A DNA stretch of 63,765 bases, the filler included, from Reclinomonas americana ATCC 50394 (taxonomy: Eukaryota): the NCBI GenBank assembly GCA_048213135.1. It is 8 parts of 8 records of this genome, joined end to end, with 100 filler letters (N's around TTAATTAATTAA, not from the genome) between each part and the next. Parts side by side here need not be neighbours in the genome. Positions count along the whole stretch, not along the records: positions 2,159 to 8,209 come from AFZH01020920.1; positions 8,310 to 11,100 come from AFZH01020921.1; positions 11,201 to 14,244 come from AFZH01020922.1; positions 14,345 to 44,185 come from AFZH01020924.1; positions 44,286 to 51,468 come from AFZH01020925.1; positions 51,569 to 61,071 come from AFZH01020926.1; 2 more parts are not named here. The stretch is one strand, 5' to 3'. Positions within the stretch are counted from its first letter, which is position 1, and each line of letters opens with the position of its first letter. The notes beneath the pieces are model-generated. The model was given only the letters and a program-made list of their open reading frames with translations. It was not told the DNA's origin and made no database searches. Positions 2,284 to 59,800 of this stretch are shown here, piece after piece. Position numbers and translations under genes: made by a program.

Positions 2284-5200
2284 TCATTGTCGACTGGTGC
2301 TGGCCATGAACGGAAGTGTTGCTCGGCACCGGTGGTGCTGGCATGCACAGTACTGCGTCAGACTGCACATATATGCACACAGACCGTCGTCACTGCCGCC
2401 GCTGATCACACCGAATTCGAATGTGCTGACTGAGCCACTCTGCAACGAACCCGCTGTCGTCACACTCGGGCTTGTAGTCGTGCCCGACACACCAGTCATA
2501 GCCTGACCAGAGATGGCAGTCGACGCGCCAGTGGCAGTCGTCCACGAGAACGCAATCGCCGTGCCAGTGTTGCTGGTCACCGCAAAGTTGGTCTGGTCGT
2601 TCGGCACCTGGCCCGTCAGCACGTTGTTGTTGAGGCCGTTGCCGATGATACCGTCACCGAAGGTGGCCTGAGTGGTCGACGTGCCAATGCCGTTGATGCC
2701 GCGCACATCGACAAAGTAGTTGGTGGCGTCGGTGAGGCCGCAGATCACAGCCTGCTGCACCGAGGTGGTGTTCTGCGTCAGCGTGCTGGCCGTAGCCGCG
2801 CGCCACGACACCTGCCACTGGGTCACGAAGCCCTGGCCGCCAGTCTCCTGTGGCTGTCCCCAGCTGAGCCAGATCGTGGTCGAACGCTTGAGCAGAAGGT
2901 TCGAAGACAGCGACAAGATGCCGCTCGGGCGCTGCGGCGACGTGGCCGTGGTGATGGTGATGGCCGTCGCAGACCAGGCAGCCTGGTAGCCGTCGTACGA
3001 CGCCACGCCAATGCGGTACTTGGTGTTGGAGTTGAGGCCATTCACCAGCAGCGACGAGGTAGTCGAACCGAGCGAGCCAATGATTGGTTCACGAACGAGT
3101 CCGGCACAAAAGTGGTCGAGGTGACGTTGGTCAGGTTCTGCACCAGCACTTGCACGCCGACAAAGTTCGCGAAGCCGTCCGAGGTGTTGAGCGAGTACTG
3201 CGTGCCCGACACAGTCGACGGGGTCGACAGCGTAAAGGTGGCGTAGCCGGAGCCAGTCGTGCCAGCCGAGCCGCCAGTGGTCAGAGCCGGCAGCGGGTAC
3301 GGGCGCACAATCGAGTTGGCAATCTGCGACAGAGTGCCCGACTGAGCACCATTCTGCGTCGAGGTCACGCCAGAGTCCGAGCGGGTGTTGGTGGCCTGCA
3401 CGGCGTAGGTGTACGACTTGCCCGGAATGGTCGGGAAGTTGAAGTTGGTGGTCGTGGTCGTCCACGTGTACGTGCGGTTGCAGTTGTTGGTGTTCTGCGT
3501 CACAACGTAGCCGTTGATCAAGGTGCCGCCAATGCCAATCGGCGACGCCCACGAGATGCTGGTGATGGTATCCTGGTAGCAGTTGCCAGAGAAGCCCACA
3601 CCGAGGGTACCAGCCACAGCAGCGCAGCCGGCGCTCGAGTTGGTGCCCTGCGAGTTCGCAATGCCAGCAGCGAGCGTCGGGGCGGCCGGGGCGATCGGTG
3701 CGTCATCTGTGGTAGGGGAGGGGAGCCGTGGTGGATGAGATACTGATAATAATAGAAACTTCACTGATCCATACACAACAATGAGCATCTACCAGTGATC
3801 GCCAACAAGTCTCTATTCAAAAAACAAGCAGATGGTTCCCTTCTCCCTCTCTCACTACCACTCCCCTCTCCTCTCCTCTTAATCTTTCCCTTTCCCTTCC
3901 CGCCTCCCTCCCCTCCTTTCCCCCCTCCACGCAACTGGTGTTGTGAGTGGTCTGAGTCAGCGGGCCAGCAGCCGTGGCCGAGTTGGTCGACGTGGCAGTG
4001 GCGTACACCTGGTACGTGTACGACGTGTTGGCCGTCAGCGTCGTGTCGGCAGTGTAAGCGGCAGTGGTCGCCCAGCCAGCCGGCAGGGTCACCGTGGCCA
4101 CAGACACCGGGGTCGCGCTGCCCTGGCCGCGGAAGATCGTGAACACCGTCACCGAGCTGGAGCCAAAGTTCTGCGGGATGACCCACTGCAGGAAGATGTT
4201 GTTGAGGCCGTACTGCGTCAGCGCCAAGTTGGTCGGCGGGCTCGGCACGACACCGGTGGCAGCCGGAGTGGTGAAGTTGATGGCAGTGCTGAACACGCAC
4301 GTCACCGGGTTGGCGGCAGTGCCAGCCGGGTTGAAGGGCGAGGTCGGGAAGGCGATCGAGAACTGGTTGCTGGCGCAGATCTGCAGGTTGACCGAGGTGC
4401 CAGCCGGCAGGCCGGTCACGTCAATGTAGTAGGTCGACAGGTTGTTGTTCCACGACGCCGCAGCGCCAGTGCCATTGGTGGCCGGGATAACGCTGGTGTC
4501 AATGTTGACGGCGGAGCCGGCAGTGGCAGCAGTCACCGACGAGGCGCTGGTGGTCGAGTACACCACACGGTAGGCGCTCACGTTCGGAGTCGGCGTCGTC
4601 ACGTTGCCCTGCGTGGCGCTCGAGGTGGCAGTGTTGGAGCCGCCGACGCTGATCGGGGTCGAGAAGTTGAGGCGCACGCCAGTCGAGAACAGGCGCGAGT
4701 ACGCCACACCAGTGGGCGCAGCCGGCACGGAGCCGTTGTTGTCGGCGGTGGCCTGGACGGAGCCGGCCGCCGAGGCAGTAGTGTTGTTGCTCACAGTGAC
4801 GCGGATCTTGGTCGTGTACTGCGTGGCAGCCACAAAGTTGTTGGTGGTGCCGCTCACAGTGAAGCCGGTAATCTGCTGGTAGAAGCCAGAGGTGTACGAG
4901 AACAGGCCGAAGAACGAGGTGGCGAGCGTGCCGTTGCCAGTCGCGCCAGTGGTGATGGCAGGCTGGTCAGTGCTGGCGTTGGTCACCGTGTAGGCGGCGG
5001 TCGGCGCAGCGGTGGTGTCGCCCGTGCCAAAGGTGGCCGGGTAGTTGAAGGCGACGACAATCGACGTCGAAGTGACCTGGTCCACAGAGCCAGTGTACGG
5101 AGCCACAGTGTAGGCAGTCGGTGCCGCCGGGGCGCTCATGGTACTCTGCAGTGTCACCGCCACGGCCGACGAGAAGGTCAGGTTGGCACCGTTGGTGCCA

Positions 5201-6519: not shown

Positions 6520-8101
6520 CTCAATGTCTATTTTTTGCGGCCAGGGCGATGGTGGAAGCGCGCGGGTAGCAAGGACCTGGGCGCGCCCGGTGCACGCGCA
6601 AGCATGGTGCTTCCGTCGGGGAGCGTGGTGATTCCGAGTGCAATGGCGGCGTCGCTGTCGGCGCTTCCGGCGGGTGCGCGCACCACAGTCACCTTTGCCA
6701 ATCCGCCACTGATGACGGCGCCGGCGGTCATGTCGTCGCCGAGTGTGGGCCTTGGAGGTGGTGAGAGGGTGGGTCAAGGCGGGGCGCAGGGACCGGCGCC
6801 GGATGATTTGACGACGCCGCTGTTGGCGGCGGGTGATCGGATGAGTGCGTCGTCGCCGCAGTCGCAGCAGCAGCAGCAGCAGCAGCAGGCGGGTGGGGTG
6901 AGGCATAATGCTGGTGTTTCGGCGGGGTTGTCGGCTTTGGCGCAGGGTGAGTGAGAGGGAGGAGGGGTTCGAGGGAGGATTGAGTGGAGTTCGGGATGTT
7001 GAGTGAGGATGTGGAGAACCTGAGAGCAGAGAGTGGCGATGGAGGAGAGATTGGAGTGTTGAGGCTGGCGTGTGAGGATGTGGAGAACGAGCGAGAACCG
7101 AAGAGTCAGAGAGCAGAGAGTGATGAAGGAGTGTGCTGAGGGAGAAGGATGTGGAGAGCGAGCGAGAGCTGAAGAGTCAGAGAGAGCAGTGAACAAGGAG
7201 AGGAGTTCGGAGTGTTCATGCTGGCATGTGCTGAGGGAGAAGGATATGGAGAGCGAGCGAGAGCTGAAGAGTCAGAGAGCGCAGTGGACAAGGAGAGGAG
7301 TTCGGAGTGTTGAGGCTGGCATGTGCTGAGGGAGAAGGATGTAGAGAGCGAGCGAGAGCTGTGGGTCTTCTGGGAGCGTCAAGTGTCGGGGCCAGAGCAA
7401 GAGGAAGAGAGGCACGATGTGGACAGGCTGTAGACGGCTCGTGAGTGGCGACTTCCTGTTGCAGCGGCATGATTAAGAACAGAGCCGAGGAGAAGAAGGA
7501 GGAGTGAGTGGTTTGGAAGCGCGAAGTGTGAGCAAGAAGATGGAGTGAGATACTCGAGAGGAACAGGCGTGGTTAAGAACAGCGGCGTGAAGAAGAATGA
7601 AAGGTATGTGGCTTGAGACAGATAGTGCGCACAACGAACACAAGGAGGTCCAAGGCATACTGCAGATTGAGAATGATGGGGTTCGAACCGTGCAGAGAAC
7701 GCGACGGAGGAGTGCTGAGAACTCTCAGCTGTCGTCCGTTCATCACTTCACTCATCCCTCTTCTTCCGCTTCACAGCCGCCACGCACATGTGTGAGCACG
7801 GCATTCGCATGGATGAGCTGAGGCCATCGCGCAACCGTCCGTTTTCGCTGATGGGCAACGACACTCCGGATGCGGAGGCGGCCTCGTGGAACAAGATCTT
7901 TCGAGTTGCGTGCTCGGTGGAGCCTCCTCGATCGAGATACGCACCCGGCCCTCACTCATCCATCCACCGTAGATGGGCCCCTTTTTGGCGCTCCTGCCAG
8001 ACGGTATGAGCGCGGTGGACCCCGATCGGCCCATGTACTTGACAGGGAATCCGCGACGGGCCTCGTTTGTGGACCAGACACTGGTTGAGCAGGTGTGTGG
8101 G

Positions 8102-8147: not shown

Positions 8148-11035
8148 GGAGGGAGGAGAGAGGAGGAGGAGAGAGAGAGAAGAGAGAGAGAGAGAGAGGA
8201 GGAGAGAGANNNNNNNNNNNNNNNNNNNNNNNNNNNNNNNNNNNNNNNNNNNNTTAATTAATTAANNNNNNNNNNNNNNNNNNNNNNNNNNNNNNNNNNN
8301 NNNNNNNNNTGAGGGAGAGAGAGGGAGCAGAGCGATGAGGGAGAGAGAGAGGGAGAAGAGCGAAGAGAGAGAGAGAGAGCTGAGCGAGTTGAGCGATGAT
8401 AGGGAGAGATTATCAGAATCTGTCCGCCGAGCTATGTCTCACAAACAGACTCACTAACTCAGCGAATCCCCCCTGGGTACAAAGCCATTCTCTCCGCCAA
8501 TCTCTCTCTCTCTCTCTGTGTGTGTCCCTCTCTCTCTCTCTCTATCATGCGTCTTATTGCTTGTGTCGGCCAACAGGCGGTGCGCGAGCCACAACCGGGT
8601 GAGAGTCTCATGTTCCGCATCACACAAGTACTGGAGGTGTACGAGAGCGTGACATGGTTTGGTGACTCCTCCAAACCCGACGCGGTGGATGGCTTGCCTC
8701 CCGTGGCACTCGTGTTGGTGGAAGTGACAGAGGAGTTCAAGCCGGCTAGCGGTGCGTCGTCTCTGCATTCTTTTGTTTGTGTGTGTGTGTGTGTGTGTGT
8801 GTGCATGAATTGAGTTCCTGTCCACCCGCAGCCCTGGTGCGTGAGCATTACAGCCAGCAAGTGGAGTTTATCTTGCGCGTTCTCGCCAAAGGTTTGCAGT
8901 GCGACATGTGCGAGTCTGAATCGTTCTCGGAGCTCACTCCTTGGTGCCCCCCGTGCAGGATCGCTGCGCATCGAGACATCTGGGCGCGATAGTTACGCGT
9001 TCCCTCCTGTCTCTCGTTTTTTCAGAGGAGTATCGTCGTCGCTGACTTGCGCTCATGAAAAGGTCTGCGCAAGCGCTTGTTGGCCGCCCTCGATGCCGCG
9101 CTGTCGGCGCACAGTGGAGGCGCGCGCTCCGTGTCACACTTTGAGTACTTGCGAAAGCTGATCAAGGTACGCGCTGGGTTGACAGGGCGCTCTTCTGAGA
9201 CGATGGCCTTGACTCTTTGCCGCAAACAGGTGTGCTTCCCGCTCGTCGCGCAACACCTGCTGATGGAGCCGCCAAACCAGCCCGTGCAAATGGTTCGTGT
9301 CGCTTGCTGACACTCTCAGTCGGCTCGTTCTTACCGATGCGCTTCTGCAGATTTACAAGTATAGTGTGCTGTGGATCTCCGGCCCCGATCACAACAACGA
9401 GACCTTTATCACGCTGCGGAGAACATTCTCGTCGTACGCGGCAGCCGTTGATTTTGTGCAGGAACGAAGGAGTGCCGATGCGGCCTTGGGAATGCGTGTG
9501 CTCTGGTTCGACTTGGTGGATCCGACGCCGGAGACGCTGCTGAGTCTGTGGGAGTTGTCGGCCATTGAGTGCCAGACACCGCTGCCGACGTATCCTGCCG
9601 ACCACTGGGGCTTCTCAGAGCGCAGCATCGAGACGGGCTTCCGTGCCTCCCTGCAGCGGTGAGTGCAGGGGAGAGGGAGGGATGAGAAGGAAGGGCGAGG
9701 AGTTGATAAGCCTCTCACCTCTGTGCCTTTCTCAAAGCGCACTCGCCGATGTTGTGCGTATTTAACTCACATGCATTTTGATATCCGCACACAGCTTGCC
9801 GGAAGACAATGTCGGCCCACTTGGTACGTGAGCCGTCGTTGCCACATGCACGCGTGGTGGTTCTCACTGAGGGGATGTGCGCACAGATCGACTCGATGTG
9901 TACTTGGTGGACCCAGAGGGCTCCGATTTTGCTGTGACCGTGCACAATTCGCCGTGCTCGGTGGTGGAGGACGTGGTCCGAGCTGCGCTGGAGGTGCGTG
10001 TGCGCGTAGTTCTCTTTCCATGTCTTGCTGTAAGATGCTGAATCGGTGCCGCAGAACGAGCGCGAAATCGACGACCCGTGCTGGGTGCTGCGCAAGATTG
10101 TGGAGCGATACGTGGAAGACGATAAGGAGCAGCTGCAGTTGCTGCGCGAGGAGGTCAGCCAGTTGCAAGATGTCGCTCTGGCGCTGCCGGCCGAAGACTA
10201 CGACACGAGTGTGCGACGAGTGGAGGATCGACTTGGTGCCCTGCGTCGCGTGTCGCGTGAATTCGAGTGTGTGGCCTCGGCGCGCTCGCACATTATTCTC
10301 GCGCTGCGAAACTGGCGCGATCGCGTTGCACACGGATCTTACAAGGTGCCGTTGCGCAATTTGTTCGTGTTGCTGCCGGTGGTGATGCATGCTCACGCGC
10401 CAGCCGTTGGTTGCAGGAATTGCTCGGGCTGGAGTTGTCGCTGCAGCAATCGCGCGTGTTGTACAAGTTGCGTGCTGCCACGATGAGTGAGGCAGTGCAG
10501 GATCGATGTTGTGGTCTCATGTGATCTGTGTGACGGCAGTCAATTGGAGGAGCTCATCAAGGAGACATTTTCATTATTCCAGTCAAAGCGTGATTACGCG
10601 GTGCGTGTATTATGCTGTGGTGTCTGATCTGGTGTGCTGTGGCTGACATGAACACACGCAGCTGAATCAACGGATGAACATTCTGAGTAAGTGGACAGTG
10701 GTGTTCCTGCCGCTGTCTCTCATCACCGGTATTTTCGGCATGAACATTCGGGTTCGTCTGTCGTGATGCTGCTGCTCTCTCGTCTGTCACCTGCATGCTG
10801 ACTTGACTGTGTAGCTGCCTCTCGAGGCGGATGCGACATTCATTCCGTTCTGGTGCATCATGACTTGGTTTGCCTTGTCGATTTTCTTCTCCTCGTGGCT
10901 GTTGCGTGCCGAGATCATCGTATTGGTGTGCCTGTCCTTTGAGTTGTTGCTCACTGTTTGTGTCGTCGTTTGCAGCCGTGTCGACAAAATCATCGGGCCC
11001 ATCTACTCGGTTCTGAAAGCCATTCGCAATCGACT
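6413..11035 (+). CDS. CorA/Alr1/Mrs2 (2-TM-GxN) Mg2+ transporter with long N-terminal extension; spans gap 8210-8309
   Basis: Spliced C-terminal part reads LNQRMNILSKWTVVFLPLSLITGIFGMNIR|LPLEADATFIPFWCIMTWFALSIFFSSWL (GMN motif between two TMs), preceded by helical stalk exons and VLWFDLVDPT. Joining of the 6413-8092 exons across the gap is inferred; the 3' end may continue past 11200. Confidence 0.8.
6985..7360. repeat. Purine-rich ~95-bp minisatellite inside CorA-gene intron 6947-7621
   Basis: gtgctgagggagaaggatRtRgagagcgagcgagagctg recurs at 7133, 7228 and 7323, with degenerate copies upstream. Confidence 0.9.
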
Positions 11036-11845: not shown

Positions 11846-14172
11846 TCATCTCGCAGTGTGACGCTTGTCAACATCCATGGAGGCAGGTCGGGGTCCATTC
11901 GGCACACTTATCGCAGCATCTGTGAAATGTAGCGGAGCGTTGAGAAGAGACAATCAAGAACCATGCATGCATCGGCATTCAAACGCACCGTACGCCGCCA
12001 AGTGGAAGAGCGCAGCCGTCGTCTGCAGATCGCGCGGCACCTGCAGCAACGCCGGCTGCACCTGTCGCTGCTGGGGGGTTATGGCCACTCGGGAAACGCC
12101 AGCCACCACAGCCGTGAACACTGGCGACATGGCGGCGGCCGGCAGACCACCGAAACACGTCGACACCGCGTTGTGGCCACCGGCAATGAGCAGGAGGGTG
12201 GCTCCTGTCGCCAACCGGTAGCTGGTCACCTGCAATCCAACAGAACATCATCAGAGGAGAAAAGTGGGAGACAAGAGCGTGATCGTGACGCACAAACGGT
12301 GACAGTTTGGTGGCAACGACACGAGCAGCCGACTGCAGGGCTGCCACCTCAATCTGTGCGCAGAACATAAGTACTTGGGGGCGAGATTTGTTGCACACTG
12401 AGTGCACCAACTCACTTCTGTCCGACAGTCGCTCTGTCACATAACATGGGGGCAAACACATGCGAGCAAATTAGTGGAAGCACACGCACTGCACGCAAGG
12501 AGAGATGTACCATGTTGACTGCAGCACACGCAGTCAGCGACGATACACATGGAATACAGCAAGGCATCAAGTGTGTTGCGCAACGGATGATGCTGCCCGA
12601 CTGCATGCACGCCATGTGCCACGCCGTGAGCACCGCAGTGTTGCCGGTCGTTGTTACAAAAATATCGCAAAAGGCCACGACATCTTCCACTTGCACCACC
12701 TCGAAGCCTGCAATGCTGATGAGCACACTCACCACAACACGCGCACGTATGAATCGGCATTTGCCGCATACCGTCTGCACACGCCAACAGTGCCTGTATG
12801 GGATCGCACTCGGAGACAAATACGCGACACCGCTCCTCCTGCACACGCGATTGACGTCAGTGCGACATACACAGCCAACTTCCTCACACCAGCAAGCTTG
12901 CAACTCACATGCAACACTCGCGCTGCGGCGCGACCTGTGGCACCGTAACCACACACCATGACCCTCTTGCCGGCTATGCAGAGGGAGGTCGAGCGGCGCA
13001 AGATGTCTGTGAGGCGTGAGCCGGCACCCACGGAAATCGCCATTTTCATCAGCTGCGACGAGTTCTGCGCACGGCAATTCAGCATCGAGCGCAGACGTTA
13101 CGGGGGAGTTCACAGAGGGTGAATGGGGTTCGCAACGTAGTCAAACACAGGCAGCAGGAGCGCGCGATGTCGCAGCAGCTGCCAGTGGCCAGTGAGATTG
13201 CCGTTCTTCTTCTTCAACACACACACACACACACGGCTGCTCACCATGCGCGCGGCTCTCAGGGCTCCCTCTCCGACAACCACGGCTCCACGCAAGCGTC
13301 GCACCAACTGTGCAGATTGAGTGTCATGAACTCTTTTTCCACGCCCACTTTCCACCACCACACCCGCCTCACCTGCTGCCACAAGTTGGTGATTCCTTGC
13401 CGTACTCTCTCCTGCAGGAAGCGCGCAAGTGACGGGTGGTTGGCAGGCAGCACAGGCCATGCGCCTCGTACGGGGCGCGGAGCAATCGCCGTCACCTCGG
13501 CCAGAAATCCTCTGTGAGCGATGCACATGCATGTGAGTTGCAGCGGTATTCACTCATGTCGCTCAGCGGACGCACCGGTGAATCATGTGCAGCAAGAGGC
13601 CCTCGTCGTCTATGATCATGTCGGACCCGACACTGCCGGAGGCGTCGGCCGGCCATGTCAACGAATCCGTTACTGCCTGCCAAACATTCTCTGCCACGAG
13701 CAAGGCGCGCGGTATATCGTTGGTTTCTCTGAATATATAGCCCGTGAAGACGACGACCATCGCTCACCCGTGTCATCGCGCTTACACAGGACCACGGTCG
13801 CCAAGCGGCGCGCCTCCAAGGCACGCCACAGGTCGGTCACAGACACGGCGCGCCACATGTGCTGCCTCGGTGGTTGTTGTTGCACTGGTGCTGGAGGCTG
13901 CTCCTCAGGTGCCGGCACATCAATACCCATGCGCTCCAGTGCGTGAGCCGCAAGATCCACCGGTGGCAACTCGGCAGAAGGCCCGGCAAGCCGATCGCCT
14001 TCCAGCACCATCGACACGTCCTTCGCGCTCTCCTCTTCTTCATCGCTCTCCTCGCTGCCGACGTCGTCGTCATCGTCCTCATCTGTCAGCCACACCAGCC
14101 ACTGTACACTGGCACCAAGCTCATGCAGTCCCTCAATCAACACCGCCGTGCTTGTCGTCAGCGGCAAGGCGC
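11846..14172 (-). CDS. Adenosylhomocysteinase (AHCY/SAHH)-like protein, highly divergent; N-terminus lost in gap
   Basis: Colinear AHCY landmarks: TAVLIEGLHELGASVQW, DMIIDDEG, IAGKRVMVCGYGATG, VFVSECDPIQALLA, CDIFVTTTGN, LLIAGGH, VPRDLQTTAALFHL. The frame stays intact through GT-AG introns. Confidence 0.85.
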
Positions 14173-14437: not shown

Positions 14438-14732
14438 TTATGATGAAGATGGAGGCGCCGCTGTTTGCACACACACACACGCACGCACACAGACAGCGTG
14501 TGAGTCTCCCCACTCTCGCGTCCACTCCCAGTGCACACACGCAACTCGCTGCACCACTGTTGCTGCGCTGCCGCTCCTCCTCCTTGCGCATCTTGTCTTG
14601 CACGTAGTACTCGCCGAGGTAGATGCCGAGTTGGTGGCCGCACACCAACGCCGCCGACACAAAGGCGAACTTGGTGGCCAGTCGGTAGCGCGGAAGCACC
14701 CATGGGCGCACCTCCAGACTCCTCTTCTCCAT
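14438..14732 (-). CDS. Small (69 aa) two-exon protein with one hydrophobic segment, unknown function
   Basis: MEKRSLEVRPWVLPRYRLATKFAFVSAALVCGHQLGIYLGEYYVQDKMRKEEERQRSNSGAA|TAPPSSS*; intron 14545-14461; GC-rich codon usage. Confidence 0.6.
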
Positions 14733-14829: not shown

Positions 14830-16363
14830 CTACTGTGGGCCTTCCTGATTGGCACGCAGCCACTGTTGGAACAATCTGCATGTGGGAGTGAGGCGGCAAA
14901 CGAGACGACGAGACATCAGTATATGTGCGCATACCGTTCCTCCTCCTCGGCCGAGATGCCCGACGCTTGCGGCTGTGCCTCGCGGTCAAACTGGCGCTGC
15001 AGCTCGAATGCCAGGCGAAGACTCTGCGCGTTGATTCGTTGTGAGCGAGGTGGAGGGCGAAGGGAGGAACAAGCCCTGCTCGTGGTCACGCACCTTGGTC
15101 TCATCGTCCTCGACCACTTGCAGGAATGTTTGACTGCGACAAGTGAGCATTCTCTTTCTCTTTCCTGCAATCAAGAACAGCGAGTGACGCAACGGCAACG
15201 GCGGTGGCTCCACTGGCGGCGGGCCCTGCACAACATCGGGCACGTGGTGGGCATGTGTGGCCGACGCGGCGGCGGGATGATCCACCACGGCCAGGAACGA
15301 GCCCTCTCGCTGGTGCTGTGGCGCTGGCGCTGGCGCCTGTGGCGGCGGCTGCGGCAACGCCACGTGTGGTACCGGCGCTGGCACCGGCATCGCCTGTGGA
15401 TGCGCGTGCGGTGTGACCTCGGGGTAGGCCGGCAGCGGCTGGTGCGGTCTGCAGTGGCGACGGTGAGACGAATGTGGTCAAGGGAGTAGGAGAGACTCGC
15501 TACGCAACGCGTCGTATGCTGGCGGTGGTGTTGGCGGCACGTAGCCGGCCACCGGGTACGGAGCAAACGGTGGCGGTGGCGCCGGCATGCTGCAAAGCAG
15601 AGGTGAGTGAGGCGCGCTTGAACAGGCAAGCTGAGGAGAGAGAGAGCTACTCACGCAGGGGCGTACATGGGTCCCGGTGGCGGCGGCTGATGCGGCACGT
15701 AGCTGTGGTGGAGCAACAACAAGAGTGAGATCGAACAAACAAACGATATGGAAAAGTGCAGCAGGAGAGCGCGCGTACCTCACTTGCGGGTACGGTTGTT
15801 GCGGTGGCTGTGCCACGTAGCTGCGACGCACAAAGGTGATGAGCAGACGGAGAATGACAGTGACATGACACGATGTCATGTTCGCATGTGTGTGTGTGTG
15901 TGTGCGTGAGAGAGAAAGCACGCTCACCTCACTGGCGGGTACTGTGGTTGCGGGGGCTGCGGCACATAGCTGCGACGCACAAAGTATTGATGATCCTCAT
16001 GAGTGTGAAAGACGACACACGCACAAAGTGAGAGAATGCTCACCTTCCTGCGGGGTAGTGCGCCTGCGGTGGCTGCTGCACGTAGCTGCGAAGGTGTGCA
16101 CACGGTTGAGTGAAAAAGCGGAGAAAACGAACACACTCAAGTCTCCCCTCTCTCTCTCTCTCGCGCGCGTGCACTTACCTCACTTGTGGCGCATACTGAG
16201 GCTGTTGTGGCTGTTGTGGCACAGGTGCGGGATAGTGTACGGCCACAGGCGCGGGCGGAAGTGGTGCGTGTTGTTGTTGAGGCGGGTTTGACAGGCACGC
16301 ATCCACGTGCTGCTCGATAATCTCTTGCGGGAAGTAGGCTTCACACACGGGGCACTGTTGCAT
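14830..16363 (-). CDS. Pro/Gln-rich protein with N-terminal UBZ4 (Rad18-type) zinc finger, PY motifs and C-terminal MIU-like helix
   Basis: MQQCPVCEAYFPQEIIEQHVDACL (CxxC-x12-H-x3-C); PPPAY and LPAY motifs; EDDETK|SLRLAFELQRQFD; GT-AG introns, almost all phase 2, ending ...ANQEGPQ*. Confidence 0.75.
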
Positions 16364-39900: not shown

Positions 39901-41443
39901 CTCTGGACCGCAGGGCAAGCTGGAGGCCACAGCCAAGATCATGGCGGTCACCTTGGCGACGAATGTGCGCACATTCATGGCTCGCGGCAAGTGTACGCCA
40001 TTGAGGTAGGCCTGCGTGTGGCACTGCGGTTGGGAGACGATGGGGAGGGAGAGTATGAGTGGCGGCATCGACTGACCTTCACATCGGGAATGCCACCGCC
40101 AGCCGCCGCCGGCTCCCAGAAGAGCACAATGGAGACGGAGGCGAAGGCCAGCACCAGATTGCAGCTCATCCACACCAAAAAAGCCACTGTGATTCTGTCG
40201 TCCGCGAGGACTGTGGGTGGGGGAGAACGATGAGAGGCGAGAAGGCGAAGGGGGAGAGGGTGACAAAAGACATCGGGCGATGAAGGCAATACAAAGGAGG
40301 AAGAGGAGGGGAACGGTGCAGGGCGAGAGATGATGCAGAAGGGAGAGGAGTGGATCATGGCGGGCAATAAACGAGCAAAACTGGTGGCTGCAGGGCGTTG
40401 AAAGGAAAACGCGACGAATGGGAGAAGAGAATTCTCCGCTGCAATCGCAATATGGACGGTGCGGTCCAGGCGCGAGTGCGAGGAGGTGGGCGAGAACGTG
40501 GTAGGGAGGAAGAATGTCACGCCACAGCGAAGCAGCTGCGGGCATGCAATCGGCGAGAAAGAAAGCAGGCGATGCACGAGCTGGGATGACGTTGTCGTGA
40601 GGGGAAGAGAAGAGTGATCATGCAACGAAGCAGGCGTAGAAAAAGAGCAGGAAGTGCATGAGGTATGGATGATGTTCTCACGACGGCGAGAGAAGAGTGA
40701 TCCACCGCGATTGAAATCGAACACAAGCTGATGGATGGCGTCGTCCAGGCGAAAGAGAGTGACGGGGAGAGGAGAGCATGCAAGGAGGCCATCGGAACAC
40801 GGGAGTCGGAGGAAAGGTGAAGCAAGAAAGCAGGTGATGACGGAGGCAAGGGAGAGTGGAAACACAAAGTTGTCATCCTTGTCCGCGTGCTGTGCCTTTC
40901 TCCATCGCCACGCAACAGGTGCTCGCCCACTCGTTCTTCCACCCTTGCAGCCGATCGATGGTCCAATGCACCCCGAAAGACAACATGCCGACCAGCAATC
41001 CAATGAGCACACTCATCGCGTACCTTTGCCCATTGGTACTCATGACCGACTGCGCACGTGAGCTGCACACAAGAGAGAGAGAGAGAGAAGAAGAGGATGA
41101 ACGCAACAAAACGCGTCTCCATGCTGACATTGGCGCGGAACAAGTCATTGTCGACGCGCGTGTAATCAATACTCTGCTGCAACAGTCAGTGTCTGTGTGT
41201 GGCAAGAGAGAAAGACAGGCACACACACACACCTCATACTTGGAGTACTTGGCCTCATCCGCGCTAGTGAGTCGCTCTGTGTGTCTCTGGTAGCGCACCA
41301 CCGGCACTCGGAACGCTTGCAGAATGATACTCGAGTGTGCCGACGATGATTTCTGCACTCGTTCACGCGCGAGTGAGAGAGAGAGAGAAAGCAAGCGACT
41401 ACATAACAGCGGAGCAACGAACCCACGTTGCATAGTCGTCCAT
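36986..41443 (-). CDS. CLC anion channel/transporter, CLC-6/7-like, with two CBS domains
   Basis: KYE|SIDY, EPAAAGGGIPDVK|AYLNG, GPE|APMIHAG, FRNPRDR|RDF, AAGVSAAFGAPVGGTLFAIEE, SGGLVIP, GAASFFGGVSR, HNGFPIVD, FRTLGLRH, GMITRKDL. Confidence 0.95.
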
Positions 41444-44833: not shown

Positions 44834-44881
<48 letters not shown>

Positions 44882-47800: not shown

Positions 47801-50800
47801 CTCCTCGTCCACATACCCGCCGCCGCTGCCGATGAATGGCTTGATTGGCACGCTGTCTTCCACGGATCCAAACACTAGCCAGACGCTCACGTTCACTATT
47901 ATCGGCGGCACGAATCAGGCCTCTTTCAATATCAGTGGCACGAATCTTTTCTCGAATGTTGCTGGACTGATGGGCAATGGGCTGCAAGTAACTGTGCAAG
48001 TGAACGATGGAGCTGGCGGAACGAATAGTACCACATTTACAATCAGCGAAGGTGCGTCGCGGTTCGAAGTCAGTTTCCCATTCTTGCTTCTCACCTTCTC
48101 TGCTATTGGTGACAGCCAATGTGCTACCCACCGCACCGACACTCTCCTCGTTGACGTATACGCCACCGCTGGCTCTCAATGGAGTGATCGGCACGCTGGC
48201 GTCGACAGATGCGAACACAGGCCAAACCCTCACGTACACCATCACTGGCGGCACGAATCAGGCCTCGTTCAACATCAGCGGCACCAGCTTGCGTTCCAAT
48301 GTGGCGGGGCTGACGGGCAACGGGCTGCAAGTAACCGTGCAAGTGAGCGATGGAGCAGGTGGCACGGCAAACACGACATTCGCCGTTAGCGAAGGTGAGA
48401 GGGAGTCTTGTACTCTTGAGCTGCGTGTTTGATGAGTTTCAAACTCACTCCTGCTTCTTCATCCTGCCAGCCAATGTGGTACCTAGTGCGCCGGCCCTCT
48501 CTACGTCCACCTACATACCGCCGCTCGCGCTGAACAGCGTGATCGGGACGCTATCCTCGACAGACCCCAACACGGGCCAGACGCTCACGTTCACCATCAT
48601 TGGCGGCACGAATCAGACCTCGTTCACCATCAGTGGCACAAGTTTGCTGTCGAATGTTGCTGGCCTGACGGGCAATGGGCTGCAGGTGACTGTACGAGTA
48701 AGCGATGGTGCTGGCGGAACCGCTAGCACGACGTTTACTCTCAACGAAGGTGAGAAGGCTTCCACATTGTTGCCATAGATCTTGTCGTTCTATAATATTA
48801 ACATTGAGTTCTCTTGTCTCACCAGCAAACGTGATACCCACTTCGCCGATCCTATCGGTGTCCGCCTACATTCCACCGCTGGCCCTGAACGGAGTGATTG
48901 CCACTTTGTCATCGGTGGATCCGAACACTGGCCAGATGCTCACGTTCACCATTACGGGCGGCACGAACCAGGCCTCATTCAACATTAGTGGCACGAGCTT
49001 GCTCTCCAATGTGGCGGGCTTGACTGGCAACGGGCTGCAAGTGACCGTACAAGTGAACGATGGAGCTGGCGGAACGAACAGCAGTACATTCTCAATCAGC
49101 GAAGGTGTGAAGAAGTCTCGTTGTTGCGTGTGTGATACTGTGAGTTGCTCACTTCTGCTTTTCTGGTTGTGCCAGTCAACGTGTCTCCCAGTGCACCAAC
49201 TCTCTCCGCGTCCACCTACATACCGCCGCTTGTGATGAATGGCGTGATTGGCACGCTGTCCTCGACGGATCCCAACACTGGACAACCGCTGCTGTTCACC
49301 ATTGTCGGCGGCACCGATGCGTCGTCATTCAACATCAGCGGCTCGAGCTTGCGGTCGAACGTGGCTGCGCTGACCGGAAACGGACTGCAAGTCACCGTGC
49401 AAGTGAGCGATGGTGCCGGCGGCGTGGCCAGCAGCATGTTCACCATCAGCGAAGGTGCGTATGTGTGTGACTGTCGCCCTTCTTTGGCACCAACTCACCT
49501 TTCCTGCAGCCAACGTCGTGCCCACTGCGCCGACCCTTTCTTCTATCACGTACATACCACCGCTGGCGCTGAATGGCGTCATTGGTACACTGTCGTCTGT
49601 GGACCCCAACACCGGACAGACGCTGACATTTACGATCACGGGCGGGGCCAACCATGCCTCGTTCAATATCAGTGGCACCAGTCTGCGATCGAATGTTAGC
49701 GGCCTCACGGGAAACGGACTGCAAGTAACTGTGCGCGTAAGCGACGGAGCCGGTGGAGTGGCCAATACTACGTTCACAATCAGCGAATGTGAGAGACTTC
49801 TATCGTCAACAACCTCTTGTGGTTGGATGACTCAAGTTTCTTGTTGCGCAGCAAACGTCAACCCTACCGCGCCAACTCTGTCCTCCACTTTGTACGTACC
49901 GCCGCTCGCCCTCAACGGCACGATTGGCACTCTGTCGTCGACCGACGCCAACACGGGTCAGGCCCTGACGTTCACTATTGCTGGCGGTACACACTCGACG
50001 CGCTTCAACATCAGCGGTACGACGCTGCGCTCCAACGTGGCCGGCCTCGCCGGCAACAGCTTGCAGGTGGTGGTGCTGGTGAGCGATGGTGCGGGTGGAT
50101 CGGTCAGCAGCACGTTTTCGATTTCCGAGAGTTGCGTGCATCACGAAAATGCTGTCGCGTACCTACCGTGTGGCTGACAAGAGTGAGCAGGCAACGTTAT
50201 ACCGTCGGTACCGACGTTGTCGACCAGTTTGTACACTCCACCGCTCGCCGTGAATGGCATCATTGGAGCGCTGTCATCGAGCGATCCCAACACTGGCCAG
50301 ACGCTTGTTTTCTCGATCGCGGGTGGCGCGAATCAGGCGTCCTTTGTTATCATCGGCTCGAATCTGTGCTCGAATGTGGCGGGATTGACCGGTAATGGTC
50401 TGCAGGTGTCGGTGAGCGTCAGCGACGGCGCCGGCGGAGTCGCCAGTTCCATGTTCACCATCAGTGAGGGTGAGTCTCATGGCAGGCTGTTGCTCGAGCA
50501 CGTCGTTGCGCTCATCCCTTCTGTATGTGTGCAGTGAACGTGCTGCCGACGGCTCCTGTTCTGTCGAACAACCTGTTTGTGCCGCCGCTGCCGCTGAATG
50601 GTGTGATTGGCGCGCTATCGTCTGTCGACCCAAACACGGGACAGATGCTGGTGTTCAGCATCACCGGCGGCACCAATGCAGCTCTGTTCGACATCAGCGG
50701 CTCGTCGCTGCGGAGCAATGTGGTGGGCTTGACGGGCTACAATCTGCAAGTGACGGTGCAAGTGAGCGATGGAGCGGGCGGCACGGCGAGCGTAATGCTC

Positions 50801-53800
50801 TCCATCAGCGAAGGTACGCACGATTTTCAGAATGTGGTGATTGGATTGTGCACGACTCTCAACATGATTTCCATCTGCACAGCAAACGTGGCTCCGAGCA
50901 GCATCACACTGTCGTCGTTGCTGTACGATCCGACACAACTGCCTCTCGCACTGGTCGGCACGCTCAGCTGTGCCGACGTGAACACGGGGCAGACGTGCTC
51001 CTTCACGGTGCTCCCCATTGGCGACGGTCCTCTGTTTCGAGTGACGAACGGCAATCAGTTGTATATCAGCAGCGCTACCGAGACGACCACGCCACTCAGC
51101 GTCAGCATCCAGACGACCGACAGTGGTGCGCCACCTCTGTCTTTCACGCAGTTGTTTACCATCAATGCTGGTGAGTCCGGCTCATGGCAGCGTGCTTCTT
51201 GTTTTTCCTAAAATACTCATTTTCTGTCTCTGTTCACCGCAGCCAATCTCCCGCCCACGGGTCTCACACTCTCTCCGACTGACTATCGCCCGCCGCTGGC
51301 CCTGAACTCCGTGGTTGGCACACTGTCGGCCACGGATGCCAACTGCTGCCAGACGCTGACATACCGGCTGGTGGGTGGCGCTGATCAGGCCAAGTTTGCG
51401 ATTGTGGGCAATCAGCTGCGCAGCAACGTGGCTGGCGGGCTCACGGGCACAGGATTGCAAGTGAGTGTNNNNNNNNNNNNNNNNNNNNNNNNNNNNNNNN
51501 NNNNNNNNNNNNTTAATTAATTAANNNNNNNNNNNNNNNNNNNNNNNNNNNNNNNNNNNNNNNNNNNNGGAGGTGGCGGACGGCGCTGGAGGGACGCAGG
51601 TCAGGTCGTTTGTGGTCAACGAAGGTGCGAGGCGGAGAAGGGGGGAGATAAGGGAAAGGGTAAAGGGGGAAGAGAGAGACGGAGGGAAAGAGGAGAGGGG
51701 GAGAAGAGTCGAGATCGTGAAATTACTTTCGTGGTTTCAATCTGTAGATAAGACTCAAGCAGAGTGTATGAGAGAGAGAGAGAGACAGAGATAGATGCTA
51801 TACAGTGCGAGAAAGAAAACAAAAATGAGCACGAGTGAGAGAGAGAGAGAAACAGAATGAGACATCGCATGAGACAACGAGGGAAGGAGAGACAGAGACG
51901 AGGGATATTAGATAGCTGCCCCTTTCCATTGCTCTCTCGTTTTATGCTTCCCTCCCTAAACATTCTCTTGCTGCTTGTGACGCAGTGAATATCCCCTCCA
52001 CTCGCATCGTGCTCTCTGCCGCGACATACTCCCCGCCAACGGCGGCGGCGAACCAACTCATCGGCTCGCTGTCCACTGTGGATCTCAACTGCTGTCAATT
52101 GTTTTCGTACACGATTGCCGGTGGCGCAGACGCCGCGCTGTTCGACATTATCAACGGCAACCAATTGGTGCTGCGCCTTGCCGGTCAGCGCGGAAGCAAC
52201 TTGTCAATCATCATTCAGTCGACCGATAATGCCATGCCTGCGCTCTCGATGCAACAATCGTTCAGTGTCAACGAAGGTGAGCTGTCTGGTTGTGGAACTT
52301 CGTATTTGATGTACGCTTCCTCACCATCTTCGCATGCAGTCAATGTGCCACCAACTGACATTACACTGTCGTCGAACACATACGCACCGCCGACTGCGAT
52401 GACTGGCGTCGTTGTCGGCACGCTTTCGACGGTGGACGGCAACAGCAACGAGTCGTTCACGTACTCGGTTGTTGGCGGTGCTGCGGCTTCGTATTTTTCG
52501 ATTGTCAACAACAATCAGCTGGCTCTCTTGCCGGTGGGACTGGTGGGCAATGGATTCCGTGTGATTGTCCGAACTGCGGATCGATTTGGCGTCACGTTTG
52601 ACAAGATGTTTACCGTGAATGATGGTGTGGAGGGAGGGAGGGGAGGGGAGGGGAGAGGGAGAGAGGGATATGGAGAGGGAGAGGGGAGAGGGGACAGGGG
52701 AGAGAGAAGAGGGAGAGAGAGAGTGAGAGAGGGAGAATGGGCCAACGGATGAAGCTGCAACCTGTGGCTTCAGTCTTGTATCTGATTTTATCCTCATTCT
52801 TCCTTTCCCTTGCTCACCTTTGTTGATTCGAGCTTCGGTGGGTGTTTTTCAGTTGTACTCTCATTCATTTCTCTCTCTCTCTCTCATGCGTCTGGCGTTC
52901 GAGCGTTGTTTGGTTGTAACGTGCTGCACATGCCCTGTTTCATTGCCCTTGTGGTGTTTTGCTCGGTGAGGTGGTGGCCCTTTTTCGCTCCCTTCCCTCC
53001 CTGGCCTTCTTCTCCCTTCCATGGCCACCTCTGTCAGACATTGAGCTTTCGTACGTTCCCTGTTATTTCCTGCTGCTCACTCTTTCTCATCGAATGTGCG
53101 TTGTATTCACTCTTGTCCTCCCCCTCGTACAGCGAATGTTCCGCCGACCGACATGGCGCTGTCGACCAATGTCTACACGCCCAACTGGCCCCTTCCCAAC
53201 CTGGTTGTCGGTGTGCTGTTAGTGACCGACGCCAACATTGCCGACACGTACACCTTCAGTGTCACCGGCGGCGCCGATGCTGCGAGCTTCACGATCAATG
53301 GTTCCTCACTAGTCACTCGTGTGGCTCGCGTCACCGGGAACAGGCTTGTTGTTGAAGTTACTGGCACGTGTGCGGCCAGCGGCGATGTGATTACGCGGAC
53401 ATTCACCCTGGATGAGAGTTTCGTGACTCGACGAGCCAGAGCTTGTTGTAGTAGCACGCTCTGTTGACCCCCTCTCTCTCCCTTGCTTTCCAACACACAG
53501 GAAATGTGTTCCCCACCGCGGTGCAACTTAGCAACACGTCGTATGTGCCGCCTGGCACGACTGCCAACGTGGTTGTCGGAGCACTGACGGCTGTGGACGA
53601 CAACTGTTGTCAGACATTCACATTTACTGTGGTCGGCGGCATCGATGCCATGCGTTTCTACGTTGGCTCGGATTCGATGCTGTATCTGCGCTACGACACG
53701 ACGATTGTGTCGCGACTGCAAGTGCAGATTCAAGTGAGCGACGGACTGGGTGGACAATGCGTCAGCTCGTTCACCATATCGGAAGGTGCGTTGGAGAGAA

Positions 53801-56800: not shown

Positions 56801-59800
56801 GAAAGGGGAAGGAGAGGAGAGGGAGGAGAGGGAGGTAGAGGGAGGGAGAGGAGAGCGAGTGATCGGCTAAGCAGTTGCTGACGTTCGTGCCAAAGTAAGA
56901 TGAGTGTGTGTGAGAAAGAAGACGGCAGGAGGAGATGAGAACAACATAGTGCGCAGCAGAAAGAAGGTTGTCTTTTGATTATCGCGGAAAGGAAGAGTTT
57001 GTTGATATGTATCCGCTGTCTGTGCTAGATTTAGAGGGATAGGTTATTCGATTCCTCCATGTGATGGAGATCGTATTAATGTGCATGATCGTGTCACTCA
57101 CCCCGCCACTCACAGAACCACCGCCGCCTCCGCCTCCTCCCTCCGTCTCCCTCGCCCCTGGCGTGGCAACAAGTGTTCCCTCCGGCACCACAACGCTGGC
57201 CACCAGTGTGGTGTATGCCAACTCGGGCAACGCGGTCAACTGGCTTTCCTCTGCCGTGATGACAACCAAAGTCAATGTGGAGCTGTGGGTGCTTGTGAAT
57301 GGTGCGTTTGTTTGCAACTTGACACAAAGAGCTGGATAACTTCTCATCCTTTCGCGTCCCAGGCACCTTTGTAAAACAAGCAGAATTGGCCAGTGGAGTG
57401 GACAGCACATTGTCGACCGCCGAGCTGGATGCGTCGCTGAAGGCGGTGAGAGGCTTGGTGTCGTCGAGCACCACGCTTCGAGTGGTGGTGACGGAGGCGT
57501 CGACGAATGGCACGGTGGTGGGGTTGACGGATCCGTTTATGCTGAAATGTTGAGGAGGGGGAAGAGGAAAGGGGGAAGGGGAGAGGCGGAAGTGGAACGA
57601 GAAGGGGAGAAGAGGGATAGAAAGGAAGTGGAGAAAGAGGCGGGAACTTGTTGAAAAGAAAGTGGGTTCACAATAGAAAGCGGGAGAAAGTGCAGAAACG
57701 TAGTGGCATTGAGATCAGGAAAGAGAAGAGAGAGGGCGGGGGGAGGGGGACGGTGCGAGACAGAGACAGAGAGAGACTGGAAGTAAGAGAGTGAGAGAGT
57801 TTAATGGCGGAGGAGAGAGAGATATGAGGGGACGAAGAGAGACAGAGACACAGAGAGATAGGAAACAGAAGAGTGAGAAAGGAGTCTAGTGGCAGTGGCG
57901 AGAGAGAAATGAGAGGACGATGAGAGACAGAGACACAGAGAGAGACAGAAAGTAAGAGTGAGAAAGGAGTTTAGTGGCAGAGGAGTGAGAGGCGAGAGGG
58001 AGAATTGATGTGTGAAAGCACAGAACGAGAATCAGAGAGAGCTTAAACAGGGTCTCAAAAGCTGAGATATAGAGTGTCATCATAGACGGTTGTGCGAGGA
58101 CTGAAGGGGAGCAAAGATGAAGACAGAGAAAGAGAAATGCAGCGGATTCGTGCACAGAACAAGAAACGGAGAACTTATTGGGGAATGGAGCGAGATTGTG
58201 AGGAACGTGAGTGGAGCGAGAGAGCACGAGAAACGCAGTTGCCAGATGAATGAGAATGGCATCGAGCAGTTGACTGCGTACTCACTATTTCTTTCACCAT
58301 TGCAGATCCGAGCATTGCAAGTCGTGCATCGGCCACTCAGACGGAACCAGCGTCAATCATTGAGCCGCTGTTTGTCACGTGGATTTGTGACGGACCACCC
58401 AAGGCCACCAACTTTACCATAAGTGTGAGTCTTGCATGACCGTCTGATTGAGAAGCGACAGCCAGCACTTACACAAGCTGCAGTTGCAACAACGGTCCAG
58501 CTCTGGTGGCTCGCTCGTGTCACTTGGGCGTGTGGCGACGCACGTGCTCGGCGCGTGTACTGCCGGTGCCAGTTCCACGGTCTCGACGTCGCGTGATGCA
58601 ATCAGCGGCACGGCCGCCGAGCTGGCTCGTGCGTTGAACGGCACCAACACGGCTGCGCTGACGTTGTCCACGAGTGCCAGTGGGCTGAGACTGCAGAGTG
58701 GTACGGACTACGTGTTCGAGGTGACACCAGAGGTCGACGATGTGTCGTTGTATGACATCTCGCCGACGTCGGCGTTTCGAGTTTTTGGTGAGTGGCGGAA
58801 GGGGGGCAGGGGGCGGTGGAGAAGATGATTGATGATGAGAGTGGAGGTGTCTTTACTGACAGGTGGCTGTGAGGGGAAATTAGCGATAAGGAGAGACAGT
58901 TGTTGAGAGTGAGAGAGAGAGAATGTGTGAGAGATGTGGTGTTTGATGAGATAATGAGCAAGTGCACCTCGCTTGTGAAGAGAACCTGTGAGTGTTGGTG
59001 AACGTGCAAGACCCTGAGTAGTGCTGCAGTCGTCTGAGTACCATCGTTGTGGCATTCGAATCATGCTTGCACGTGACCTGTCATTTTCATCTCTAGATCT
59101 GTTTTGTGTGTCGGCAACTCTCACTCACCCTGGTTGGGCTACAGATCCCACCTCCGTGTTCGCGACATCCACGTGCCCATCCTCCATTCGATGCTGGTAC
59201 TGGATTGCGCTGATGGCTGCTGGAGGCACTCTGCTGTGCATGATCACCACCTGCTGCTGCATGTTTGCCTGCTACCGTCGTCGGCAACGACGTCGTGTCG
59301 GGGGCGCGAAACTCGGTCCGGGCGCCAGCTGGCTGCTGGATCGCGATGCGACTTTCGTGCAGTTTGTCGTGTCGCCAAGTCTGTGGTGTGCTCGACGTGC
59401 TGGTCGAAAGGCGGATACAAAGGCAATCACCACGCTGACGATGATTGATTTGCCGGCGACTCGTTGCGTGCGAATCCGTGCTTGCAGCTCAGCATGCGTT
59501 CCGCTTACCTGCGATATTCACAGCCATCAACTTGGCCACTGCGCCGCAACCTCGTTGCGTCTCATTGTAATCGCTTCTACTATCTGCCTCTCTGAGTTTT
59601 CGTCCAGAACTCCATCACTTCGCGGTGATCTCTTTCTCTCTTTTTCTTTGTTTCTGTCTCCTTGTCTCTCTCTCTCTCTTTGTCTTTCTCCGTCTTTCTT
59701 TGTCTCGGTCCCCTTATGTATCTCTCTGTTTCTCTTCCCTTCTCTCTCTCTCCCCTTCTCTCTATTACACTTGATTTTCTCAATTGCTACTCCTTGTCCT

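Follow-up and report, generated by a model that had tools for sequence, protein, structure and literature searches.

Reclinomonas americana ATCC 50394 (Eukaryota; GenBank assembly GCA_048213135.1) appears to use two forms of the 5' splice site, or 'donor', side by side. We describe them in 63,765 nucleotides (nt) of this genome, eight contigs joined end to end, which we refer to throughout as 'the window'. The standard donor is of the kind G/GTGCGT, where the slash marks the cut. Introns that follow an exon without a final G have a second form, H/GTTGCGT (H = A, C or T), in which the donor core lies one base farther from the cut. Within the window, this class of donors and its restriction to exons without a final G are well supported. 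We consider it probable, at roughly 60%, that introns of this class are ordinary U2-type GT-AG introns in which the core that pairs with the U1 small nuclear RNA (snRNA) has moved one base downstream, a '+1 shifted' register. Shifted and bulged registers are already known as rare exceptions; what would be new here is a shifted class that is major and rule-bound.

Introns that begin GTTGCG

The original prediction for this DNA, made by a model reading the sequence alone, placed 28 introns beginning GTTGCG. The hexamer is present at all 28 positions and starts at the base given in each case, 6 times on the + strand and 22 times on the - strand. The preceding base is A in 12, T in 9, C in 7 and G in none, as had been reported, and the seventh intron base (+7) is T in 24 of the 28. 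Counted over both strands, HGTTGCGT occurs 39 times, against 12.11 +/- 3.64 expected from dinucleotide shuffles, and none of 100 shuffles reached 39. GGTTGCGT, its counterpart with a preceding G, was counted 3 times where 2.99 were expected, which is chance level; the entire excess therefore follows a non-G base. All three occurrences of GGTTGCGT are antisense to the local predicted gene. (The hexamer ratio for the whole window with strands pooled was uninformative.) As a control, we counted the same motifs in 75 metagenome contigs from other eukaryotes that bear the gene for PSME4, 484,311 bases in all, and found 24 HGTTGCGT and 7 GGTTGCGT, that is, background. These loci came from an alignment-based metagenome scan; the closest matches at no more than 61% over 44 residues, and none is enriched in the motif. 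The same scan with the PSME4 C-terminus alone gave no relative. The excess of GTTGCGT donors is not general among eukaryotes.

Introns were placed with a self-training Viterbi gene finder that weighs codon log-odds, open frames, an acceptor matrix and intron length, and that never scores the exon side of the donor. It has no start or stop model, and all gene models in this text are its predictions. In a 'donor-agnostic' run, which demands only that an intron begin with GT or GC, the finder over-predicted (303 introns, with genes fused across strands). This run served for the tally of intron starts only, and stricter settings were used afterwards. Sense regions for the tally were set by us from Pfam orientation and the first gene-finder runs. 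Among the 216 predicted introns in sense regions the leading start hexamers were GTGCGT (27) and GTTGCG (23); GTTGCG did not occur at all among the 87 predictions located on a wrong strand or outside the assigned regions. The final model, whose donor table for positions +3 to +7 was learned from the donor-agnostic run, converged on 171 introns. GTTGCG begins 33 of these (19%) and is present in all 11 predicted genes. The earlier view that such donors form a sizeable class therefore stands, and its estimate of one intron in seven was somewhat low. The final model recovers 23 of the 28 listed donors as intron starts and adds 10 more, every one of them preceded by a base other than G (Table 1).

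Homology lends weight to several of these placements. A profile built from 26 full-length PSME4 homologues places the exons of the window's gene in colinear order between 26.3 and 16.6 kb. Matches to individual exons stop beside the donors at 24441, 19171 and 17339, and profile coordinates resume in the next exon. Spliced according to the model, with 46 introns of which 12 begin GTTGCG, the gene encodes an open protein of 2029 amino acids that scores 927 bits against the same profile. In the kinesin gene, the Pfam Kinesin profile is contiguous over the donor at 33859 (250-287, then 286-319). GTTGCG introns occur in all three phases, with 9, 11 and 10 in each.

The exon rule and the one-base displacement

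Statistics on donor classes were drawn from predicted introns of 45-140 nt, which comprise 151 of the 171. The 30 GTTGCG donors in this set have no G at the last exon base (-1: A in 14, T in 9, C in 7), whereas 60 of 80 standard GT[GA]NG donors do (p = 5.6e-14). The restriction of GTTGCG donors to exons without a final G, the heart of the original prediction, is thus borne out. Repeats in the cadherin-like array described below are paralogues, and not independent of one another, which weakens the full count; the contrast stands when they are excluded (0/28 versus 43/60, p = 1.7e-11). The rule extends to minor variants. Donors that begin GTTTCG (n = 4) are never preceded by G. Those that begin GTTCGT (n = 6) also have T at +3, but carry G and T at the canonical +5 and +6, and are preceded by G in 5.

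The intron side is displaced in step. Standard donors have G at +5, T at +6 in 50/80 and G at +7 in 30/80; GTTGCG donors have G at +6, T at +7 in 25/30 and G at +8 in 18/30. Position +3 is T in every GTTGCG and GTTTCG donor. A matrix derived from standard introns over positions +3 to +8 was also applied to each predicted donor, once in each register. Donors with G at -1 scored higher in the canonical register in 76 cases and in the shifted one in 10; for the remainder the figures were 25 and 40 (p = 9e-11). The +1 register gave the higher score for all 30 GTTGCG donors. The spectrum of variants is mirrored, too: GTGCGT is matched by GTTGCGT, and GTTCGT by GTTTCGT. A/GTTTCGT donors, noted earlier as relatives of the class, were found at 53418, 21803 and 20742, and a T/GTTTCGC donor at 28941. 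Two other relatives, T/GTTGAG and A/GTTAC, could not be confirmed; the sole GTTGAG in the final model coincides with the stop codon of PSME4 and is likely to be spurious.

After exons that end in A, C or T the two forms are about equally used, H/GTTGCGT at 30 sites and H/GTGCGT at 20. The exon ends of the GTTGCG class favour C at -2 (12/30) and A at -1 (14/30), so that CA followed by the intron's own G resembles the classical CAG.

Donors that switch class in place

A long array of Big_9/cadherin-like repeats (44287-57544, + strand) provides a natural series of paralogous donors, useful for comparison. The repeats have a period of about 345 nt, and each contains one phase-1 intron in the same column, after ...ATCAGCGAAG. 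As the original prediction held, the donor is GAAG/GT in most repeats, and GAGA/GTTGCGT (50131) or GAGA/GTTTCGT (53418) at the same column in two others. It follows that donors switch class in place upon loss of the -1 G.

Other properties of GTTGCG introns

In most other respects, GTTGCG introns resemble their standard neighbours. A CTCAC-type branch motif is present, at the same distance, in 23 of 30 GTTGCG introns and 60 of 80 standard ones, and median lengths are 67.5 and 65 nt, respectively. Local alignment scores of intron interiors are 7.40 within the GTTGCG class, 7.36 between classes and 7.41 within the standard class. Two candidate identities were rejected in this connection. Minor (U12-type) introns have a donor and a branch consensus of their own; the introns described here combine a GTTGCGT donor with the same CTCAC-type motif, at the same distance, as standard introns. 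An introner-like mobile element or repeat family was set aside on the grounds that interiors are no more similar within the class than outside it, and that the sites are homologous to standard introns in paralogous repeats.

Two differences were seen at the 3' end. Outside the array, the acceptor is GCAG in 23 of 28 GTTGCG introns and 31 of 60 standard introns (p = 0.009, uncorrected). Over the full sets, CT-rich 5-mers such as TTCTC occur near the 3' end in 1 of 30 GTTGCG introns and 19 of 80 standard ones. These may reflect a coupling between donor class and 3' end, or else an effect of paralogues.

A probable +1 shifted U1 register

How might such donors be recognized? In the reading we favour, the core TGCGT of H/GTTGCGT would pair with the 5' end of U1 one base farther from the cut than it does in G/GTGCGT. 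The intron's first base, G+1, would then face U1 C9, the slot normally held by the last G of the exon; U+2 would lie opposite U1 C8, a mismatch; and U+3 would pair with U1 A7 in place of U+2. The remainder, GCGU, would pair or fail to pair just as it does in GUGCGU, and later steps, involving U6 and U5, would cut before the sole GU available. With the exon base fixed by coding, it would be the intron that adapts. Each form of donor would forgo one G pair: that with C9 in H/GTGCGT, and that with C8 in H/GTTGCGT. G/GTTGCGT would not be seen because exons that end in G have a fully matched canonical donor.

A shift of this kind requires that +3 be T, that downstream preferences move by one base, and that the exon G be dispensable. 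The absence of -1 G from the GTTGCG class is consistent with an intron G+1 that takes the exon's place at U1 C9. The register change put forward in the original prediction thus retains its footing—the -1 G depletion, the one-base displacement, the invariant +3 T and the mirrored variants—while the pairing itself is something we infer.

Several considerations weigh against this reading. The first is energetic. Calculated by nearest-neighbour rules with the standard U1 5' end, from which the organism's own U1 may differ, mean duplex energies are -1.19 kcal/mol for GTTGCG donors, -3.80 for H/GT[GA]NG and -7.33 for G/GT[GA]NG, and no more than 12 of the 30 GTTGCG donors are predicted to pair best in the shifted register. 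With duplexes as weak as these, thermodynamics alone fails to explain why H/GTTGCGT is used at 30 sites and H/GTGCGT at 20. The second concerns the exon base. Standard donors have G at -2 in 16/80, and a simple shift predicts about 6 GTTGCG donors in 30 with G at -1, more than the none observed (p = 0.0012). To account for the surplus depletion an extra assumption is needed, namely the coding-fixed exon base and the adapting intron outlined above. Third, the intron side of seven to ten predicted donors with G at -1 is also compatible with the +1 register, from which it follows that a bulge-type reading exists beside the shift. Finally, there is the nature of the sample: a single 64-kb window, gene models of our own prediction, and 5 of the 28 listed sites unrecovered. 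At these five (7905, 14545, 34808, 40916 and 41107) the coding signal was weak or a rival in-frame donor was chosen. The position of the cut, before GTTGCG, we infer from reading frame, homology and the GT-AG rule.

Alternative explanations

The strongest competitor, although we regard it as doubtful, is that two donor codes operate in parallel, with about a fifth of introns served by a dedicated snRNA or factor that matches GUUGCGU without mismatch: a second U1 variant, for example, altered opposite +2, or a U1 with a modified 5' end. The exon's last base would then dictate which code applies. GTTGCGT(G) is more constrained than the standard donor and yet pairs poorly with standard U1, at the mean of -1.19 kcal/mol given above. 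With a hypothetical U1 5' end in which one base is changed, a construct rather than an observed RNA, the GTTGCG class reaches -11.95 kcal/mol and standard donors about -6. There is also precedent: in Entamoeba and Mastigamoeba, U1 is reported to carry a co-evolved recognition sequence (10.1101/2022.06.08.495308). On the other hand, a variant U1 leaves the absence of -1 G unexplained, and a scan of the window with Rfam returned no family at gathering score, and hence no snRNA gene there. The same source reports that Thecamonas, which prefers C at +4, and five Mamiellales, which use GYGCGY donors, have standard U1 pairing sequences (10.1101/2022.06.08.495308). A C-rich donor core is therefore no sign in itself of a changed U1, and the analogy weakens the suggestion, made in the original prediction, that U1 or U6 snRNAs or associated factors may be altered or duplicated. 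For the same reason, a hypothetical U1 with G-C opposite +4/+3, matched to the GCGU core, seems less likely.

Less probable again is a bulged register, in which G+1 and U+2 pair with U1 C8 and A7 as usual, U+3 bulges from the helix, and the pairing of GCGU is the same as in GUGCGU. GTTGCGT is, after all, GTGCGT with one T inserted, and human sites with bulges at +2/+3 have been validated, 68 being predicted among about 10,000 non-canonical sites (PMC4856993). Predicted donors in the window with G at -1, at 55252, 38094 and 30620, resemble G/GT followed by an extra A or G and then the core. A bulge keeps the -1 base opposite U1 C9, however, so that -1 G would be expected about as often as among standard donors (75%); it was found in 0/30. 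Furthermore, the bulged base could be any base, and in the non-G class it is always T. Sites of the forms G/GTAGCGC, G/GTAACGT and G/GTGACGT (55252, +; 38094, -; 30620, -; 45965, +) are predicted candidates for a true bulge register, and are a separate matter from the GTTGCG class.

It is more unlikely still that recognition is independent of the U1 register, and that a protein factor, U6 or U5 reads UGCGU and directs the cut to the nearest GU upstream. Neither standard U1 nor U6 pairing explains the C at +4 of the core; the U6-side factors METTL16 and SNRNP27K have been linked to differences between species in the donors they prefer (PMC10581693); and the other end of the intron differs slightly, in the GCAG bias described above. 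By itself, though, this scheme gives no reason to expect the extra T and -1 G to be mutually exclusive.

We think it very improbable that the true cut lies three bases on (GTT/GCGT, a GC-AG intron), or at the internal GT at +6, so that exons end in GTT or GTTGC. A cut at the GC preserves the reading frame, and frame alone therefore cannot decide the matter. Because the donors fall in three phases, this alternative would need an exonic GTT to be kept in every codon phase. When the PSME4 exons are extended accordingly, the profile score drops at 11 of 12 donors (by 0.1 to 6.4 bits) and rises at one (by 0.4), and the kinesin profile is contiguous with the cut at GT. GTTGCG donors are probably not, then, those of GC-AG introns. 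The internal GT was rejected as a cut because it is lacking in 5 of the 33 donors and, for 16 of the 28 that have it, would bring a stop codon into the exon that follows.

The least credible proposal is that there is no splice class at all, only chance, the terminus of a repeat or introner-like element, or an artefact of placing introns by inference, as was done in the original prediction and again here, and against it stand the excess over shuffles after non-G bases only, the recovery of the motif by a donor-agnostic model, its absence from wrong-strand predictions, the dissimilar interiors, the homology with standard introns in the array, and the background levels in contigs of other eukaryotes.

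Relation to known systems

Shifted registers have been studied in human splicing, and the original count reportedly ran to a few dozen sites. We compare them with the +1 register proposed here. In the human form, all base pairs between the 5' splice site and U1 are displaced by one position (PMC4856993, which cites Roca and Krainer 2009). The likeness to the window is close: human shifted sites also begin GUU, with the consensus that follows GU one base later, G+1 facing the partner of the exon G, and the cut at GU. They are described there as rare and atypical (PMC4856993), whereas the class accounts for 33 of 171 predicted introns here. The core differs as well, being AAGU in human shifted sites and GCGU in the window. 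In our sample the exclusion of -1 G is absolute, and the register is read from sequence rather than from suppressor-U1 experiments. Human sites with a bulge at +2/+3 are alike in that an extra nucleotide separates GU from the remaining consensus (PMC4856993); they differ in keeping the exon -1 base paired, which predicts an enrichment in -1 G that is not seen here.

Other eukaryotes offer partial parallels. The GUUUGU-type donors of Entamoeba are likewise specific to a lineage and have U at +3, and for them, too, a concomitant change in snRNA is in question (10.1101/2022.06.08.495308). These form a single atypical consensus, in intron-poor genomes, with a canonical register and a modified U1; the window has two registers side by side in an intron-rich genome. 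Ostreococcus uses GTGCGTG donors with the same atypical core as the window's standard donor, G/GTGCGT(G); the available text of that report mentions no GTTGCGT class (PMC2483917). The nearest relatives of the window's PSME4 for which a source is named are holozoan protists (Amoebidium, Corallochytrium and Mylnosiga) rather than green algae; on this evidence alone, the organism would probably be taken for a holozoan protist. The accessible part of a paper on holozoan genomes describes no GTTGCGT donor class (PMC5560861). Two classes of 5' splice site that balance exon-side against intron-side contacts are already known, and they likewise trade -1 G for a stronger intron side (PMC10581693, PMC11842720). 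Those classes share one register, whereas here the intron-side consensus is itself moved by one base. Donors of the form GTTGCGT, GUUGCGU or GTTGCGTG, or a lineage with a major shifted class, were not described in the full-text literature searched, which excludes subscription journals and supplements.

If the +1 shifted register is correct, this organism would supply hundreds to thousands of natural test cases for a phenomenon that until now has been studied site by site in humans. It would bear on how selection of the cut, U1 binding and transfer to U6 are uncoupled, and on whether snRNAs evolve together with the donor consensus. Splice-site models and gene finders that assume a single register would, in such lineages, give wrong scores to a fifth of donors. 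Annotation of this organism calls for donor models conditioned on the -1 base.

The window and its genes

The window is eukaryotic DNA, dense in introns, with a G+C content of 57%. Predicted introns have a median length of about 65 nt and end in CAG. Seven identical artificial linkers of 100 bases (44 N, TTAATTAATTAA, 44 N) connect the eight contigs; genes and introns that adjoin them may be truncated, and the order and orientation of contigs are not assured across them. Genes were located by Pfam scans of open frames, and are listed in Table 1 with the introns.

Table 1. Predicted introns, donors, genes and linkers of the window. 'Listed' donors are those of the original prediction, 'new' ones were added by the final model; the slash marks the presumed cut
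Feature	Position	Strand	Donor	Basis or remark
GTTGCG intron, listed, FN3 protein gene	3707..3935	-	A/GTTGCGTGG	gene finder; 229 nt
GTTGCG intron, new	10467..10539	+	A/GTTGCGTGC	gene finder
GTTGCG intron, listed	10901..10975	+	T/GTTGCGTGC	gene finder
GTTGCG intron, listed, SAHH-like gene	12519..12584	-	C/GTTGCGCAA	gene finder
GTTGCG intron, listed, SAHH-like gene	13065..13136	-	C/GTTGCGAAC	gene finder
GTTGCG intron, new	15134..15193	-	C/GTTGCGTCA	gene finder
GTTGCG intron, listed	15449..15508	-	C/GTTGCGTAG	gene finder
GTTGCG intron, listed, PSME4	16911..16967	-	T/GTTGCGTCG	gene finder
GTTGCG intron, listed, PSME4	17041..17101	-	T/GTTGCGTGA	gene finder
GTTGCG intron, listed, PSME4	17277..17339	-	A/GTTGCGTGG	profile contiguous, 1615 to 1616
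GTTGCG intron, new, PSME4	18662..18731	-	A/GTTGCGTCT	gene finder
GTTGCG intron, new, PSME4	18927..18990	-	A/GTTGCGTGG	gene finder
GTTGCG intron, listed, PSME4	19074..19171	-	T/GTTGCGTTT	profile contiguous, 1439 to 1438
GTTGCG intron, listed, PSME4	19791..19859	-	C/GTTGCGTGC	gene finder
GTTGCG intron, listed, PSME4	20967..21037	-	C/GTTGCGTTG	gene finder
GTTGCG intron, listed, PSME4	23710..23775	-	T/GTTGCGTGC	gene finder
GTTGCG intron, listed, PSME4	24365..24441	-	T/GTTGCGTCC	profile contiguous, 408 to 407
GTTGCG intron, listed, PSME4	25029..25102	-	A/GTTGCGCCT	gene finder
GTTGCG intron, listed, PSME4	25924..25994	-	A/GTTGCGTGA	gene finder
GTTGCG intron, listed	29154..29225	+	A/GTTGCGTGT	gene finder
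GTTGCG intron, new	30257..30321	-	A/GTTGCGTGC	gene finder
GTTGCG intron, listed, kinesin	33635..33695	-	A/GTTGCGTGC	Pfam match stops at split codon
GTTGCG intron, listed, kinesin	33795..33859	-	A/GTTGCGTGA	Pfam Kinesin contiguous (see text)
GTTGCG intron, listed, kinesin	34394..34467	-	A/GTTGCGTGG	Pfam match stops at last full codon before donor
GTTGCG intron, new, CLC channel gene	37935..37998	-	A/GTTGCGACG	gene finder
GTTGCG intron, listed, CLC channel gene	38855..38933	-	T/GTTGCGTGG	gene finder
GTTGCG intron, new, CLC channel gene	39315..39384	-	T/GTTGCGTGA	gene finder
GTTGCG intron, new	42413..42549	+	A/GTTGCGCCT	gene finder; 137 nt
GTTGCG intron, new	42641..42869	+	C/GTTGCGTCA	gene finder; 229 nt; less certain
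GTTGCG intron, new, Big_9 array	49123..49175	+	T/GTTGCGTGT	gene finder; ambiguous
GTTGCG intron, listed, Big_9 array	50131..50190	+	GAGA/GTTGCGTGC	column of the paralogues' GAAG/GT
GTTGCG intron, listed	59463..59523	+	C/GTTGCGTGC	gene finder
GTTGCG intron, listed	59554..59809	+	C/GTTGCGTCT	gene finder; 256 nt; acceptor uncertain
Listed donor	7905..7911	+	A/GTTGCGT	motif present; intron not recovered by model
Listed donor	14539..14545	-	A/GTTGCGT	motif present; intron not recovered; adjoins linker
Listed donor, kinesin	34802..34808	-	A/GTTGCGC	model preferred in-frame GTACCG 9 nt upstream, same acceptor
Listed donor	40910..40916	-	T/GTTGCGT	motif present; intron not recovered
Listed donor	41101..41107	-	T/GTTGCGT	good acceptor 45 or 58 nt downstream; outside predicted genes
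Related intron, PSME4	20679..20742	-	A/GTTTCGTTC	gene finder; mirrors canonical GTTCGT
Related intron, PSME4	21733..21803	-	A/GTTTCGTTG	gene finder
Related intron	28941..29017	+	T/GTTTCGCGA	gene finder
Related intron, Big_9 array	53418..53500	+	GAGA/GTTTCGTGA	homologous to GAAG/GT introns
Doubtful intron on PSME4 stop codon	within 16385-16573	-	T/GTTGAG	gene finder; probably artefact
FN3 protein gene	2.3-7.2 kb	-		Pfam on open frames
Divergent S-adenosylhomocysteine-hydrolase-like (SAHH-like) gene	12.0-14.2 kb	-		Pfam on open frames
PSME4/PA200 gene	16.6-26.4 kb	-		Pfam on open frames
Kinesin gene	about 33-36 kb	-		Pfam on open frames
CLC channel gene	37.8-41.7 kb	-		Pfam on open frames
Long Big_9/cadherin-like repeat array	44-57 kb	+		Pfam on open frames
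Linkers	2059-2158, 8210-8309, 11101-11200, 14245-14344, 44186-44285, 51469-51568, 61072-61171			44 N-TTAATTAATTAA-44 N

The entry at 49123 is ambiguous because, 18 nt upstream and in frame, the column homologous to that of other repeats has a canonical-looking donor, GAAG/GTGTGA. The model also fused PSME4 to the next gene downstream via two doubtful introns (16385-16573, -), which are probably artefacts and were not counted.

A protein homologue search with the CLC exon region gave no match, and word-based searches with the SAHH-like open frame, both whole and with its region 141-185, gave no relative. The SAHH-like gene is divergent: Pfam AdoHcyase models match it in short pieces only, and it contains an acidic stretch, rich in Asp and Glu, at 13900-14100 (-). 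The exon that follows its donor at 12584 (12440-12585, -) is very short in any reading, 29 nt in the gene model; by eye, it could instead be a micro-exon of 8 nt followed by a GTACAT donor. Finally, an open frame of 702 codons (3820-5925, -), rich in Thr, Ser and Ala, adjoins the FN3 domain, and has a third-position G+C content of 83%, far higher than that of other genes in the window.

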